From: Candidatus Bathyarchaeota archaeon
Lineage (GTDB): Archaea > Thermoproteota > Bathyarchaeia > Bathyarchaeales > Bathycorpusculaceae
Assembly (NCBI GenBank): GCA_963827165.1
Contig: CAWGZR010000005.1
Span: 384,001-448,000, forward strand
Direction: 5' to 3'
DNA length: 64,000 bases
Positions within the stretch are counted from its first letter, which is position 1. The number at the start of each line of letters is the position of its first letter. Of the stretch, positions 51,703 through 56,876 are shown piece after piece. The notes beneath the pieces were generated by a model. The model was not told the origin of the DNA. It saw only the letters and a program-made list of their open reading frames with translations, and ran no database searches. The translations under genes and the position numbers were made by a program.

Positions 51703-53238
51703 TTGACAAATAATAATTTAAATTCACAATACAAACAGCTTTTAGAGAAAACCGAAGATTTAATGGTTCTGCAGACGGCTGAAGGTTTGATTCACTGGGA
51801 CATGGAAACCATGATGCCTCCTGGCGCAGTGGAGCAAAGAAGCATGCAGCTGTCCCTTTTAACCCGTATCAGCCATCAAATGAGCACTGACCCAAAAATC
51901 GGAAAATTATTAACATCTATCCAGGCAAACCCTCTATACGAGTCAATGGAGCAAGCTGAGAAACGTAACGTTTACCTCATAAAAAAAAGCTACCGGGAAC
52001 AAACAAGCCTGCCAGAAAAACTAGTTGCCGCCATCGCCAAGCAAGAAGCAGTCGCGGTGAATGTTTGGAAAAAAGCTAAAGCCCAAAAAAACTTTGCCCT
52101 TTTCAAACCTGACCTGCAAAAAACAGTGGATTTGACCTTGGAAGCTGCGGAAATTCTCATGCCAGTAAAAGAAGTCAAGACGCCGTACGAAGCTTTAATC
52201 GATAATTTTGAGCCTAAGATGAACGCCGAAACTATTACGTCAACGTTTAACCAGCTTCAAAGCGGATTGAAACGACTAATAGAAAAAATTCAAGATAGCC
52301 AAAGTAAGCCAGACACCTCGGTTCTCAGCATATCTGTTCCAGTTGAAAGCCAGCGGCAGATTGCTCAGGTTTTGACTCAGACTTTAGGTTACGATACTTG
52401 TTCGCTTGAAGCTCGAGGAAGAATCGATGAGACAGAGCACCCCTTCACCGAAGGCTATTACGACGACGTCCGAATAACCACACATTATTACCCGAACAAT
52501 TTCGCTAGCTCTATCTTTTCTGTCCTCCATGAAAGCGGACATGCTCGCTACGAGCAGAACCTCAACTCAAAATGGAAGTTCCAGCCCATAGGTTCCCCCT
52601 GCTCGTTTGGCATACACGAGTCACAATCGCGTCTCTACGAAAATCTAATTGGACGATCTAAAGAGTTCTGGACCGGTCTCATACCAAGAATAAAGAAGGT
52701 AGCTCCTAGCCTTGCGAACCTAGAACTGGACAAGTTCGTGAAAGCCATCAACAGGGTGGGGCTTTCTAAAATACGCATAGAAGCCGACGAGGTCACGTAT
52801 AGTCTGCACATAATTGTGCGCTTTGAAATTGAAAGGGATCTTTTCGCCGGTAAAATCAAAGTCAACGAGTTGCCGCAGGTTTGGAACCAAAAATACGCGG
52901 ATTATCTGGATGTTAAAGTTATGGATGATTCGGAAGGGGTAATGCAGGATACTCATTGGGCAAGTGGATTATTCGGTTACTTCCCGAGCTATGCTCTAGG
53001 CAACATCTACAGCGGACAAATATTGGCGGCCATAACCAAAGACATGCCTGATTGGCGGAACCAACTCGCGGCTGGGAAGCTCGACGAGCCGAATGAGTGG
53101 TTGAAAAGAAACATACACGGCTTAAGCAACCTCTACGACCCCGAGGAACTTATAAAGAGAGCGACTGGAAGAAACCTGAATTCTGAAGCGTTCATGACTT
53201 ATTTGAATGAGAAGTACGGTGCGATTTACGGGTTCTGA
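51703..53238 (+). CDS. Carboxypeptidase M32 (Taq-like)
   Basis: HPF, HESGH (HExxH), HESQ, IRIEADE, QDTHW, GYFPSY. Confidence 0.96.
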   Translation: MTNNNLNSQYKQLLEKTEDLMVLQTAEGLIHWDMETMMPPGAVEQRSMQLSLLTRISHQMSTDPKIGKLLTSIQANPLYESMEQAEKRNVYLIKKSYREQTSLPEKLVAAIAKQEAVAVNVWKKAKAQKNFALFKPDLQKTVDLTLEAAEILMPVKEVKTPYEALIDNFEPKMNAETITSTFNQLQSGLKRLIEKIQDSQSKPDTSVLSISVPVESQRQIAQVLTQTLGYDTCSLEARGRIDETEHPFTEGYYDDVRITTHYYPNNFASSIFSVLHESGHARYEQNLNSKWKFQPIGSPCSFGIHESQSRLYENLIGRSKEFWTGLIPRIKKVAPSLANLELDKFVKAINRVGLSKIRIEADEVTYSLHIIVRFEIERDLFAGKIKVNELPQVWNQKYADYLDVKVMDDSEGVMQDTHWASGLFGYFPSYALGNIYSGQILAAITKDMPDWRNQLAAGKLDEPNEWLKRNIHGLSNLYDPEELIKRATGRNLNSEAFMTYLNEKYGAIYGF

Positions 53239-53486
53239 ACGGCTGGTGTTTGAGGCGAGGGCATGGGCTTCTTGGTGAATTCCTTATATATGTATATCAC
53301 GAGGTAAACCATGATTGAGCCAATGGAAAGGTAGAGACCGGTGTCACCGACTATTAAACCCTGGATGGGGGTAACGTCCTTACCTACAGATGTGCCGCCC
53401 CAAAGTTGAATGTTAGCGCCCACCACGAATAGTATGAAACCAAGGATGAATGCGGCTAGGCACGCCCAGTCAATCCGAGACATCAT
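53226..53486 (-). CDS. Small two-TM membrane protein
   Basis: Two hydrophobic segments, GAGGT SD. Confidence 0.7.
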   Translation of the reverse strand: MMSRIDWACLAAFILGFILFVVGANIQLWGGTSVGKDVTPIQGLIVGDTGLYLSIGSIMVYLVIYIYKEFTKKPMPSPQTPAVQNP

Positions 53487-53645
53487 ATTACCTCAGAGGA
53501 TGCAACAAATAAAACTCCAAGGTATATAGATTTACCGCTGAAACTTTCCCGGTGAGAAGCAAATGTTACCGCCCAACATTCAATAGGTAAAATTACGTCA
53601 AATATCGAGAATTAAACCGACGGCCCTAAATATTTTTCGAAGCCT

Positions 53646-53703
53646 CCGACATTTTTATATATAAGATAGTACACAGGAAAGCGCTGAGGAGATCAAATGT
53701 CGG
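53646..53703. promoter_or_regulatory. Inverted repeat CCGACATTT / AAATGTCGG around the TATA box and start codon of fae-hps
   Basis: Perfect 9-bp arms at 53646-53654 and 53695-53703, with tttatatataag between them. Confidence 0.5.
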
Positions 53704-55145
53704 GAGCAGATGTTAAGAAGCCAGAAACTCGGGAAGAATTTGTTAAAGTGTTGACAGAAGCCGCGAAAAAAGAAGTTGATTTGAAAAATAGGCCGACAAA
53801 ACCGACAATCGTCGGAACGGCAAAAGAAATGGACATTCATCGAGATACACTTTATAGTTGGTTGAAAGAATTTAATGTCGATTTTAAAGAGGTGGGCGAC
53901 CGCGTACCGACAGCTATTGCAGATGCCCCAGAAAAAAAATCCGGAAGCATTTACTTAATCGGGGAATCTCTGGTTGGGGAAGGAAACGAAGTTGCACACA
54001 TCGACCTTATGATTGGCAATAAGGATGGCCCAGTGGGGCAAGCCTTCGCCAATGGCATGACAAGCCTGTCGGCGGGGCACACGCCGCTACTGGCCGTTAT
54101 TAGACCCAATTTGCCGTCTAAACCTCACACGCTAATCGTACCCAAAGTAACCGTGAAGAACATGGAGGATACGGGAAAGATTTTTGGTCCCGCTCAGGCG
54201 GCGGTTGCCAAAGCCATCGCTGACTCCGCAGAAGAAGGAATCATTCCACGCGAGCACCTAGACGACTGGGTTATAATCTGCAGCGTTTTTATCCATCCGC
54301 AAGCAGCTGACTTCAGAAGAATCTACCAGTACAATTATGGCGCAACAAAAATGGCGCTCCAACGTGCACTGAAGAATTACCCATCGTTCGAAAAAATGAT
54401 CTACGAAAAAGACCGTTCAAAGCACCCCATCATGGGCTTCAAAGTTCCGCGCCTATGGAGGCCACCATATCTGCAAATTGCATTAGACGCGCCAAATCTT
54501 GAAGGGGCAAAGAAGGTTCTTGAACAACTGCCAGGAAGCGACAGAATCATAATTGAAGTCGGAACCCCCCTCATAAAACGGTACGGCACACGCGTAATCA
54601 ACGAGCTGCGCCAAACCGCGAAAGCCAAAGACAAATTTGTGATAGCAGACCTCAAAACCCTTGATGTGGGCAAAGTTGAAGTAGACATCGCATACGAAGA
54701 CACGGCAGACGCAGTTGTCGCAGCAGGCTTAGCACCTCCAGAAACGCTTGACGCAACGGTTTCAGAAGCCAGACGTATGGGAATCTACGCAGTCATAGAC
54801 ATGCTAAACGTGGAAGATGTTATGGCAAAGCTGAAGTCAATTAAAGATTTACCGGATATTGTCATACTGCACAGAGGCATTGACCAAGAAAGTGGCAGAA
54901 CCTGCGGACTCGAACGCATAAAAATGATACGGGACGCCTTCCCAAACAGGAAACTCCTCATAGCAGTTGCCGGAGGAATCGTGCCGGAAACCGCTAAAGA
55001 AGCCTTGGAGCTTGGCGCAGACATCCTAATCGTCGGCAGATACGTCACTCAGAGCAGAGACATCGTTCGGGCAGTAAGAGACTTCCTTGAACTAACACCA
55101 GCCATGCGTGAAGACATCGATCTCTACAGAGTACACACAGAATAA
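53697..55145 (+). CDS. fae-hps: Bifunctional formaldehyde-activating enzyme / 3-hexulose-6-phosphate synthase with N-terminal HTH
   Basis: Fae: IGESLVGEGNEVAHIDL, GHTPLLAVIRPNL, FGPAQAAVA. Hps: LQIALD, EVGTPLIK, ADLKTLDVG, HRGIDQE, VAGGI. Confidence 0.95.
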   Translation: MSGADVKKPETREEFVKVLTEAAKKEVDLKNRPTKPTIVGTAKEMDIHRDTLYSWLKEFNVDFKEVGDRVPTAIADAPEKKSGSIYLIGESLVGEGNEVAHIDLMIGNKDGPVGQAFANGMTSLSAGHTPLLAVIRPNLPSKPHTLIVPKVTVKNMEDTGKIFGPAQAAVAKAIADSAEEGIIPREHLDDWVIICSVFIHPQAADFRRIYQYNYGATKMALQRALKNYPSFEKMIYEKDRSKHPIMGFKVPRLWRPPYLQIALDAPNLEGAKKVLEQLPGSDRIIIEVGTPLIKRYGTRVINELRQTAKAKDKFVIADLKTLDVGKVEVDIAYEDTADAVVAAGLAPPETLDATVSEARRMGIYAVIDMLNVEDVMAKLKSIKDLPDIVILHRGIDQESGRTCGLERIKMIRDAFPNRKLLIAVAGGIVPETAKEALELGADILIVGRYVTQSRDIVRAVRDFLELTPAMREDIDLYRVHTE

Positions 55146-55260
55146 AACCGAGCGAAAGCTCATCAACTTTTTCTTTTATTTATTTTTTAATGTTGTTGCT
55201 TCAGGAGAATCGCCCATCTATCGCCAACTATATCTTTTGTATGATAGCCTTCTTTTGCCG

Positions 55261-55625: not shown

Positions 55626-56876
55626 TCATCTAAAAAGTTTCAAAGTTAAGAAGGCAACTAAGAAAAAAACGGCTGTTATAACGAACATTGGGGTGTAGTT
55701 GAGGCTGAATGCAAGGAATGGCCCTAGGAAGGCACCTATGGCTGATCCTAAGCCGACGAGGCCGTCGAAGAAGCCGGCTTTTCCTTGGGGTATAACCTCC
55801 ATTGAGAGGGAAAGCATCATAATGTAGTACATGGCGTAGGCGAACCCCATGAAAATCAGCAAAATTCCCGTCATAATTGTGGGCGCCAAAGCAAACACGA
55901 TGACCCCGACTAGCGCAAAAATAAGTACGCTACGCAGGAGGACAAAACGCGGCATCTGCTTTCGTATATCCATTGAATGTGCCCGATGCGCGATCAGAAA
56001 ATACCCTGTTGTCCCTCCAACAGAGTTCAAGATATATGCGACGTAAACCCAGCTTGTCGACAAGCCTAAACCGTCTCTAAGAAAAATCGGCAACGGAGTG
56101 AAGAACAGGCTCGTTGCAAGAGCAAACAAAACTATCGCTAAAGCAAACCCAGCGAAACTCTCCTCCTTTAGCGAACCGTTCCAACGCAGCCCATCCATAA
56201 GCCTCGAAGAACCCTCTAACCCGCGATTAGCAATATCCATCTTTCTCTCTATGGCAACCAGACGCCTCTCAAAAATCAACAACGGGTCAGCAACAAGCAA
56301 CGCCGCCAAAACCAAAGCCACCACGCTCAAAACGCTGCAGATATAAAACGTGTAATTTGACAAAACAGAGAAACTGAAAGTAGACGCAAAAAGAATTATT
56401 CCCATTGCCAAACCGGAAATTGTGCCTAGTTCAGTTATACCTTCATAAACCCCGAAAGTTCTTTCCCAATCGTTGCGGCTGTAATGCTCTGTAACGAGCA
56501 CATTCTTTGGCGATTCATGTGCCACATGAAGCATTTGCATAGCCACGTACAAGGCAACGAAGACTATTAGATTCTGGGCAAAAGGAAGCGTCATGAGGAA
56601 AAGAATCAGGGCTATCGAAGCGAAAGCAAGAAGAATGAAGATTTTGTAGTGACGTGTAGCATCGCAGAGGTACCCCCAGAGAAACGAGGCAGGAATCGAG
56701 CAAAAAATCGCAATTGAAGTCATAACGCCCAAGGCAAGCAACGGCCCGCCCAAGATACTGGTGTTCTTAAAAGCAATGACATAGAGTGGAATGAAGACGG
56801 TTAGTAATCCGAAAGCCATGTCATGAAAGAAGAACCCCAACCGCCACATAGCAAAAAATGCACTCCTATGTTGCAT
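55626..56876 (-). CDS. MFS transporter (12-TM)
   Basis: WGYLCDATRHYK motif-A variant, 6+6 TM layout. Confidence 0.88.
   Translation of the reverse strand: MQHRSAFFAMWRLGFFFHDMAFGLLTVFIPLYVIAFKNTSILGGPLLALGVMTSIAIFCSIPASFLWGYLCDATRHYKIFILLAFASIALILFLMTLPFAQNLIVFVALYVAMQMLHVAHESPKNVLVTEHYSRNDWERTFGVYEGITELGTISGLAMGIILFASTFSFSVLSNYTFYICSVLSVVALVLAALLVADPLLIFERRLVAIERKMDIANRGLEGSSRLMDGLRWNGSLKEESFAGFALAIVLFALATSLFFTPLPIFLRDGLGLSTSWVYVAYILNSVGGTTGYFLIAHRAHSMDIRKQMPRFVLLRSVLIFALVGVIVFALAPTIMTGILLIFMGFAYAMYYIMMLSLSMEVIPQGKAGFFDGLVGLGSAIGAFLGPFLAFSLNYTPMFVITAVFFLVAFLTLKLFR

Follow-up and report, generated by a model that had tools for sequence, protein, structure and literature searches.

We analysed a stretch of 64,000 nucleotides (hereafter, the window; positions 384,001 to 448,000 of contig CAWGZR010000005.1, assembly GCA_963827165.1) from an uncultured soil archaeon, Candidatus Bathyarchaeota archaeon. 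In the window, the plus strand of 53697-55145 encodes a protein of 482 amino acid residues, in which a helix-turn-helix (HTH)-like extension precedes the two enzyme domains Fae (formaldehyde-activating enzyme) and Hps (3-hexulose-6-phosphate synthase). We call this protein HTH-Fae-Hps. Comparison of related loci suggests that HTH-Fae-Hps probably controls its own gene (autoregulation) by binding of the fused HTH to copies of the hexamer CCGACA (TGTCGG in the inverted orientation). We consider autoregulation the most likely reading because the hexamer tracks the HTH across species and because its copies extend over the promoter, the start codon and the first codons of this very gene. At least two hexamers are present in the 200 nucleotides upstream plus the start in 92 of 97 HTH-type loci, as compared with none of 20 loci without the HTH. 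Thus, a check for co-conservation of the motif, which had been proposed in an initial annotation of the window, gave a positive result.

Fae-Hps with an N-terminal extension

The reading frame 53697-55145 is the sole long one at the locus. The gene starts with ATG, is present as a single copy in the genome and is apparently monocistronic: both neighbouring genes (53226-53486 and 55626-56876) are on the opposite strand. The Fae domain (residues 88-246; 53958-54434, plus strand) was matched by Pfam PF08714 (E 1.2e-70), TIGR03126 (257.5 bits) and PDB 1y5y (E 2.8e-43). The Hps domain (residues 257-462; 54465-55082, plus strand) has the orotidine monophosphate (OMP)-decarboxylase fold (Pfam PF00215 OMPdecase, E 1.6e-34), and its PDB matches, 9lj9 and 3f4w, are 3-hexulose-6-phosphate synthases. 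The whole protein belongs to the bifunctional Fae/Hps family (NCBIfam NF009833, 573.1 bits against a cut-off of 274), with both halves aligned. Catalytic activity of both halves would fit their domain homology and the strong purifying selection described below. Positions 2-390 of the NF009833 model, which has 392 positions, aligned with residues 86-481. Because this alignment begins at residue 86, the reference family starts at Fae, and HTH-Fae-Hps possesses 86 extra residues (53697-53954, plus strand). The initial annotation had described a triple fusion of an HTH, Fae and Hps and had stated that characterised Fae-Hps proteins begin at Fae; both statements agree with these alignments, which place the extension and the two enzyme domains in one open reading frame. 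PDB 8ub7 (Avd) was rejected as a relative of the extension because it aligned solely via the Fae moiety, with an alignment identical to that of 1y5y.

The 80 best related loci from species-representative genomes showed 80-92% identity, and their titles were almost all Bathyarchaeota, Bathyarchaeia or Bathycorpusculum. We used a set of 79 loci, namely the window and 78 relatives; L044, which has a 5' deletion, and L078, which has a frameshift, were left out. In this set, the median ratio of nonsynonymous to synonymous substitution rates (dN/dS) was 0.13 for residues 1-70, 0.42 for the linker (residues 71-86), 0.04 for Fae and 0.07 for Hps. Arg49 is invariant across the 79 loci, yet it is written with six different codons. 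Alternative in-frame starts are poorly kept: Met45 is present in 71% of the loci, and position 66 is Ile in 94%. Thus, the annotated ATG is well supported as the translation start by invariant residues with up to six codons and by the lack of conservation of the alternative starts. When residues 1-86 were used as a query, 528 proteins among 593 candidates matched at E<=0.01; nearly all of the 120 matches listed were Fae/Hps proteins of 473-482 residues. The dN/dS value and these shared proteins bear out the earlier assumption that the extension is translated.

Fae-Hps was carried by 288 of 401 sampled genomes of the class. In the 150 rows listed, matches starting at query residue 1-7 came from the family of the window (f1), from f4, f5 and f8, which belong to the same order, and from one f17 genome. 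In the remaining families, matches started at residue 62-84. The 528 shared proteins and this family distribution show that the extension is a stably inherited, order-level feature, and the distribution of the fusion, which had also been named as a check of the prediction, was consistent with it.

Several loci in this comparison are anomalous. L007 and L073 encode a Bathyarchaeia-type HTH-Fae-Hps with 83-88% identity on contigs filed as 'Limnocylindrales bacterium' and 'Methanocella sp.' bins, and this filing suggests mis-binning. L044 (L044:1300-1760) is without the region of the transcription factor B recognition element (BRE) and TATA box and without the first ~12 codons; its -93 block is joined straight to codon ~12. 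L078 (L078:1300-1760) has a frameshift/stop after codon ~13 and retains all hexamers. These two anomalies could be assembly errors or real variants.

The initial annotation had called the extension a clear HTH on the basis of the peptide TIVGTAKEMDIHRDTLYSWLKEF, which corresponds to residues 37-59. In an AlphaFold2 (AF2) model of the extension, helices were predicted at residues 12-29, 38-44, 49-59 and 63-69, followed by a low-confidence linker at residues 72-84. The block-mean predicted local distance difference test score (pLDDT) was 83-85 over residues 41-60. The invariant residues of the extension (P36, T37, G40, A42, H48, R49, D50, T51, Y53 and W55) fall in the predicted helix-turn-helix. 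An exhaustive structural comparison placed AraC, TetR and sigma HTH domains on top, with Z of 4.5-6.2. When 38 family members were compared with Pfam at E<=0.01, 34 matched HTH_28, 32 matched HTH_29 and 31 matched GP3_package. Proteins with HTH_Tnp_1/HTH_28/HTH_23 tandem repeats were recovered by a phmmer search of a library of 1.84 billion proteins (E 4e-10 to 1e-5). Apart from Fae fusions, the proteins closest to the extension are P0143, P0145 and P0149, which contain 6-10 tandem copies of a unit of ~55 residues of this type. A stand-alone homologue of the extension was also considered and rejected: all four single-stretch matches inspected (P0124, P0127, P0130 and P0135) are pieces of Fae fusions, and the remaining short library matches look like fragments of Fae fusions, judging by their lengths and match ranges. 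A profile search of the extension against PDB sequences gave just two matches with E ~0.1, an Argonaute-associated protein and a phage protein (2ao9). From the weak Pfam matches, the AF2 model and the fold matches, we conclude that the extension is a predicted three-helix HTH of a transposase/terminase-like kind, which lies outside every curated family. That it is a translated HTH seems to us almost certain, in accordance with the initial annotation.

CCGACA hexamers at the promoter and in the coding region

The candidate operator was originally described as a perfect 9-bp inverted repeat at the edge of the TATA box and the start codon. This repeat is exact: CCGACATTT (53646-53654) and AAATGTCGG (53695-53703) are 100% complementary and 40 nucleotides apart. 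The left arm directly adjoins the TATA box, and the ATG (53697-53699) is part of the right arm. The estimated expectation for one 9-bp inverted repeat per ~250 bp is ~0.1, and 8 inverted pairs are present in 551 bp; a 9-bp inverted repeat alone is nothing rare. What lifts the hexamer array above chance is its clustering and its conservation across species. As judged from the alignments described below, the conserved unit is the 6-bp core CCGACA/TGTCGG and not the whole 9-bp arm. Thus, the operator proposal held in so far as a real, selected cis-element tracks the HTH, and it has to be corrected with respect to its unit.

Exact copies of CCGACA/TGTCGG start at 53646, 53698, 53793, 53802, 53907 and 54067. 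The first of these (53646-53651, plus strand) occupies the BRE position directly 5' of the TATA box, and we designate it the proposed operator O-BRE. O-BRE is found in the -60..-50 bin in 73 of the 79 loci and in most of 18 loci from distant families, and it has maximal information content in the upstream alignment. The octamer TTTATATA (53654-53661, plus strand), which we take to be the archaeal TATA box from general knowledge of archaeal promoters, corresponds to a conserved 'TTAtATA' block in the 79 loci. The Shine-Dalgarno-like GAGG (53686-53689, plus strand) lies 7 nucleotides before the ATG and is moderately conserved as 'aGg'. The second exact copy (53698-53703, minus strand; TGTCGG on the plus strand) overlaps the start codon and codons 2-3. 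This proposed operator, O-start, is present in 76 of the 79 loci, and its distance to O-BRE is 51-54 bp in 87 of 88 loci.

The other copies are mostly inside the codons of the extension. The initial annotation had placed further copies at 53617 and in 53790-53815. These copies are present, at 53617 and 53793-53815, and the list was incomplete: sites at 53876, 53907 and 54067 have to be added. The copy at 53617-53622 (plus strand) is an imperfect upstream hexamer, CCGACG, and is weakly conserved (of the 79 loci, 6 have exact CCGACA in the -90 bin and 14 have it in the -110 bin, and a 'cgacaa' block is seen in the alignment). Within the gene, CCGACA at 53793-53798 (plus strand; Pro33-Thr34, +96) is kept in 53/79 loci, and where the residue is kept the codons are CCG in 86% and ACA in 100%. 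CCGACA at 53802-53807 (plus strand; Pro36-Thr37, +105) is kept in 78/79 loci, with CCG and ACA each in 79/79, and in 12 of the 18 distant loci. An imperfect inverted copy at 53810-53815 (minus strand; CGTCGG on the plus strand) forms CCGAC-N4-GTCGG together with the 53802 site; here the codons are GTC for Val39 in 79% and GGA for Gly40 in 87%. Another imperfect inverted copy, at 53876-53881 (minus strand; TGTCGA on the plus strand), spans Asn60-Val61-Asp62, with AAT in 100%, GTC in 96% and GAT in 91% where the residue is kept. CCGACA at 53907-53912 (plus strand; Pro71-Thr72 in the linker, +210) is found in 66/79 loci (CCG 96%, ACA 94%). The exact copy TGTCGG at 54067-54072, within the Fae domain, is unconserved in the 79 loci (no bin of at least 6). 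The five perfect hexamers upstream of the Fae domain are located at 0, 52, 147, 156 and 261 bp. These distances correspond to 4.95, 14.0, 14.86 and 24.86 turns at 10.5 bp per turn, at most 0.15 turn off a whole number. Therefore, the five hexamers lie on one face of the helix.

We compared the hexamer counts with those in shuffled sequences. The window contains 38 hexamers, as compared with 21.8 +/- 5.2 in shuffles, and 38 was reached by 0 of 100 shuffles. Genome-wide, CCGACA is not enriched (1314 observed vs ~1167 expected). Clusters of at least four hexamers within 320 bp occur three times in 3.13 Mb, as compared with 0 in each of five shuffles. The genome has a single CCGACA followed by a TATA box, at the HTH-Fae-Hps promoter, and a single CCGACA-N43-49-TGTCGG in 3.13 Mb, also at HTH-Fae-Hps. 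The idea that CCGACA is the general BRE of this lineage was rejected because of the single CCGACA-TATA occurrence and the lack of genome-wide enrichment of the hexamer. The two other clusters, each with five hexamers, are both inside coding sequence: one is in a fragmented P-type ATPase-like region (C5:245974-246285) and the other is in ATP-binding cassette (ABC)-transporter genes (C5:536223-536540). Since these clusters are intragenic and no second promoter with the paired arrangement was found in the genome, a wider regulon was also rejected.

The intergenic alignment of the 79 loci is diverged save for two blocks of maximal information, TCCGACA-N-TTATATA and ATGTCGGGA. Weaker blocks ('cgacaa' and 'cgctaaaa') can also be seen, as can the GAGG. 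The hexamer is the most conserved non-coding feature of the 79 related Bathyarchaeia loci. Its trace is also seen in the codons. Just three of 181 conserved columns with four-fold or higher degeneracy are codon-invariant, namely Ser2 (TCG), Pro36 (CCG) and Thr37 (ACA); in the gene, TCG accounts for 12% of Ser codons and CCG for 20% of Pro codons. Columns in which one codon reaches at least 94% number 6 of 17 in the extension, as compared with 2 of 164 elsewhere. We regard it as very likely that the hexamer array is a selected cis-element.

For the distant comparison, we used 20 HTH-type loci from f4, f5, f8 and f17, of which 18 were parsed (L126 and L128 were left out), and 20 loci without the HTH from other families. 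In the 18 distant HTH-type loci, the order is TGTCGG, 31-32 bp, CCGACA and TATA box, 51-54 bp, and NTGTCGG at the start. In these families the start codon is ATG, GTG or TTG, and the hexamer over the start is retained. One of the 20 loci without the HTH, L152, is a second, extension-less Fae-Hps copy in a genome of the genus of the window. In another genome of this genus, G127 (L155, G127:C5:25000-25900), an in-frame deletion removes the HTH, and the protein starts MSGTEVKKPENRASGPTYLIGE. The promoter hexamers of G127 each have one substitution (CCGGCA and TGTCAG).

Other fused heads, the proposed mechanism and its alternatives

The 20 loci without the HTH comprise 13 without a recognisable extension, six with a ribbon-helix-helix (RHH) domain and one with an HTH_7/HTH_23 domain. 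In the six RHH-type loci (L136, L140, L141, L144, L145 and L151), an RHH of 45-50 residues (GRITREQYRFLEE...SEAVRAA) takes the position of the HTH. The ParD_antitoxin cut-off of 21 bits was exceeded, with scores of 24.9 and 22.2 bits, and RHH_1 was just below its cut-off in three. A full RHH-Fae-Hps gene is found at L153:1-1353, and a search with the RHH part gave 9 further Fae/Hps proteins of 443-450 residues. RHH-type promoters carry GTGACAC/GTGTCAC copies beside the TATA box, with at least two copies in 3 of the 6 loci; none of 111 other loci contains the word. In L150 (G035:C202; N-terminus L150:46-285, minus strand), an HTH_7/HTH_23-type domain (IARKYGISRDTVERRL), which scores above the cut-off, precedes Fae-Hps, and three TTTGCGGCA-type copies flank the TATA box. 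The 13 loci without a fused domain possess none of the three promoter repeat types. It is difficult to see why three unrelated DNA-binding heads would each come with a promoter repeat of their own if the heads did not read the promoter.

We propose the following mechanism. A small HTH (residues ~10-70) would be tethered by a flexible linker to bifunctional Fae-Hps. Since Fae crystal entries have five chains each (10 chains in 2 entries), we presume that the enzyme forms an oligomer. The HTH heads of this oligomer would recognise CCGACA copies, of which one is at the BRE/TATA edge, one is over the start codon and three to five are within the first 215 bp of coding sequence. Occupancy of O-BRE would compete with TFB/TBP, and occupancy of O-start would put protein under the footprint of RNA polymerase. 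In archaea, transcription initiates ~25 nucleotides past the TATA box; if this is the case here, O-start would be ~13-20 nucleotides past the transcription start. With O-BRE and O-start bound, TFB/TBP and RNA polymerase would be kept off the promoter, which would result in negative autoregulation. The helical phasing and the spacings of 51-54 bp and 31-32 bp, which are kept across families, fit contacts of several heads of one oligomer with a single face of the DNA.

The sequence contains two of the features expected of a trigger enzyme, which the initial annotation had suggested: a putative DNA-binding domain and an enzyme in one polypeptide, and a cis-element at the promoter that co-occurs with the domain. 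We infer that the HTH itself binds the hexamers, that the effect is repression and that there may be a response to substrate or product, namely formaldehyde, hexulose 6-phosphate (Hu6P)/ribulose 5-phosphate (Ru5P) or tetrahydromethanopterin (H4MPT) species. Such ligand control, which we propose tentatively, would make HTH-Fae-Hps a true trigger enzyme of the kind of PutA, BirA, NadR or RbkR. A joint reading of all three fusion types would be that Fae-Hps is a metabolic sensor-regulator built at least three times with unrelated heads, and that in the HTH form its oligomer wraps the promoter and ~215 bp of coding DNA via at least five phased half-sites, with the expression level set by formaldehyde or one-carbon (C1)-pentose flux. 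This joint reading is rather doubtful at present.

Several points weigh against autoregulation by the fused HTH. The evidence for the HTH is sub-threshold or modest throughout. In the window, the extension stays below the gathering cut-offs (given in brackets) of HTH_28 (19.6 bits; 28.1), HTH_29 (19.4; 25), HTH_23 (17.2; 24.1), HTH_Tnp_1 (17.1; 29.4) and GP3_package (16.1; 24.6). The mean pLDDT of the AF2 model is 69, the best Z of 6.2 is below the level at which the tool regards a match of helical models as distinctive, and a Foldseek search of the model against PDB gave nothing at E<=0.001. A classical dimeric HTH operator would not usually consist of single half-sites in both orientations, as the hexamers do. 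Two further five-hexamer clusters are present elsewhere in the genome, and clustering by itself therefore does not set HTH-Fae-Hps apart. HTH-type loci are approximately one clade (f1, f4, f5, f8 and one f17 genome), so the co-occurrence of motif and domain represents few independent events. The loss in G127 was seen in a single metagenome-assembled genome. Finally, metatranscriptomes leave the promoter uncovered. Six runs contain 5-13% of sampled words, and the contigs of four runs fall solely on parts of 53450-53567, 53922-54039, 54217-54865 and 55043-55160. No contig lies on 53568-53921 or covers the promoter or the extension, so that these runs give neither a transcription start nor a sign of expression of the extension.

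Three other explanations were considered. The hexamers may be a true operator of a separate, lineage-specific transcription factor; the fused HTH would then have a role in non-specific nucleic-acid binding, protein contacts or localisation. Since the HTH-type loci are near a single clade, the co-occurrence is phylogenetically confounded and a clade-specific regulator would give the same pattern; moreover, half-sites in mixed orientation do not resemble the textbook site of one HTH family. However, a separate factor would serve one gene only, because no other promoter of the genome shows the arrangement of the hexamers. The 3.13-Mb genome contains no paralogue of the extension, even at E<=10. 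Furthermore, the promoter hexamers are mutated in G127, the sole genome with the fused HTH deleted, and the lineages with RHH or HTH_7 heads have different promoter repeats while the 13 domain-less loci have none of the three. We therefore consider a separate factor unlikely.

The hexamers might instead act in messenger RNA (mRNA): AUGUCGG would pair with a downstream CCGACA and hide the start codon, which would give translational control. Four to six copies are inside the transcript, CCGACA is the exact complement of UGUCGG, and a local hairpin, CCGAC-AAUC-GUCGG, appears in the predicted fold. However, 53684-53930 is not predicted to fold better than shuffles (z -0.93; 32 of 200 were as stable), and its predicted structure leaves the start codon unpaired with any CCGACA. 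The best-conserved copy is 5' of the TATA box and the extra TGTCGG of the distant families is 31-32 bp further upstream; neither would be transcribed. The hexamers are invariant, and they neither co-vary nor wobble. Control through mRNA pairing is very unlikely in our view. An equally slight chance is given to the idea that the extension and repeats are a domesticated remnant of the transposase head and terminal repeat of an insertion sequence (IS), without a present regulatory role. The transposase heads of many IS elements bind a terminal repeat overlapping the transposase promoter, and all weak family matches of the extension (HTH_28, HTH_29, HTH_23, HTH_Tnp_1 and GP3_package) are of transposase type or terminase type. 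However, both the protein (dN/dS 0.13) and the DNA hexamers are under purifying selection in at least four families of an order, and a transposase catalytic domain and a second terminal repeat are both absent at the locus. An IS origin is compatible with autoregulation by HTH-Fae-Hps; it is a rival solely in the claim of no present role.

Comparison with known systems and features of the locus

RbkR is an archaeal riboflavin kinase with an N-terminal winged HTH. As described in the accessible part of the RbkR study, its regulon was inferred by comparative genomics, autoregulation was suggested in 36 genomes with a site at rbkR-ribB, and the system was verified biochemically (Rodionova et al. 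2017, PMC5397151). Like HTH-Fae-Hps, RbkR is a metabolic enzyme of archaea whose N-terminal DNA-binding domain has been lost in related lineages; in contrast, RbkR is a CTP (cytidine triphosphate)-dependent riboflavin kinase with a winged HTH, palindromic sites and several controlled operons, according to the same part (PMC5397151). HTH-Fae-Hps has candidate 6-bp half-sites at its own gene only, several of them in its own coding sequence. PutA from Escherichia coli/Salmonella carries an N-terminal RHH together with proline dehydrogenase and pyrroline-5-carboxylate (P5C) dehydrogenase and represses its own operon (accessible part of PMC5397151 and general knowledge). HTH-Fae-Hps likewise has three parts, with a small putative DNA-binding domain at the N-terminus before a bifunctional enzyme, and RHH-Fae-Hps of other Bathyarchaeia is still closer to the layout of PutA. 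There is no sequence relationship between PutA and HTH-Fae-Hps, and the head is an HTH here and an RHH in PutA. We know of no counterpart in HTH-Fae-Hps of the PutA switch, which is a proline-driven membrane association.

BirA and NadR, which are named in PMC5397151, are bacterial repressors in which an N-terminal HTH is fused to one or two enzyme domains, and the ligand state of the enzyme controls DNA binding. They differ from HTH-Fae-Hps in their enzymes, HTH families and palindromic operators. Canonical Fae-Hps of the Methanosarcina type (NF009833/PRK13307) has the same Fae and Hps over the full model, and HTH-Fae-Hps has the extension in addition. Thus, HTH-Fae-Hps differs from PutA, BirA, NadR and RbkR in its enzyme, in an HTH outside curated families, in mixed-orientation half-sites and in sites within the codons of the head.

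Bathyarchaeia are among the most abundant uncultured archaea of sediments and peat, and to our knowledge almost nothing is known about their gene regulation. A literature search, which did not reach supplements, gave no description of a DNA-binding domain on Fae-Hps. In the accessible part of a survey of Bathyarchaeia, fae is mentioned solely as a widespread detoxification or assimilation gene (PMC10321748). If HTH-Fae-Hps reads C1/pentose flux and controls its own transcription, it would join a very small group of archaeal trigger enzymes, with RbkR as the precedent. Within the literature searched, we know of no earlier trigger enzyme in C1 metabolism, and HTH-Fae-Hps would be the first. The candidate operator is unusually clean and testable, with one hexamer, one gene and a known spacing, and the parallel RHH and HTH_7 fusions offer a natural system for comparison. 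A dual-coding constraint of this kind, with operator sites inside the codons for the DNA-binding domain, would be uncommon.

A 6-phospho-3-hexuloisomerase was searched for in the genome with TIGR03127, and no protein scored above the cut-off of 160 bits; the best match (67 bits) is a SIS-domain frame of 399 residues (C9:169956-170318). At the locus itself, the divergent gene 53226-53486 (minus strand), which encodes a predicted membrane protein of 86 residues, shares the intergenic region with HTH-Fae-Hps. A second TATA-like element (TATATA, minus strand) is located at 53520-53534, ~40 nucleotides upstream of the start of this membrane-protein gene.

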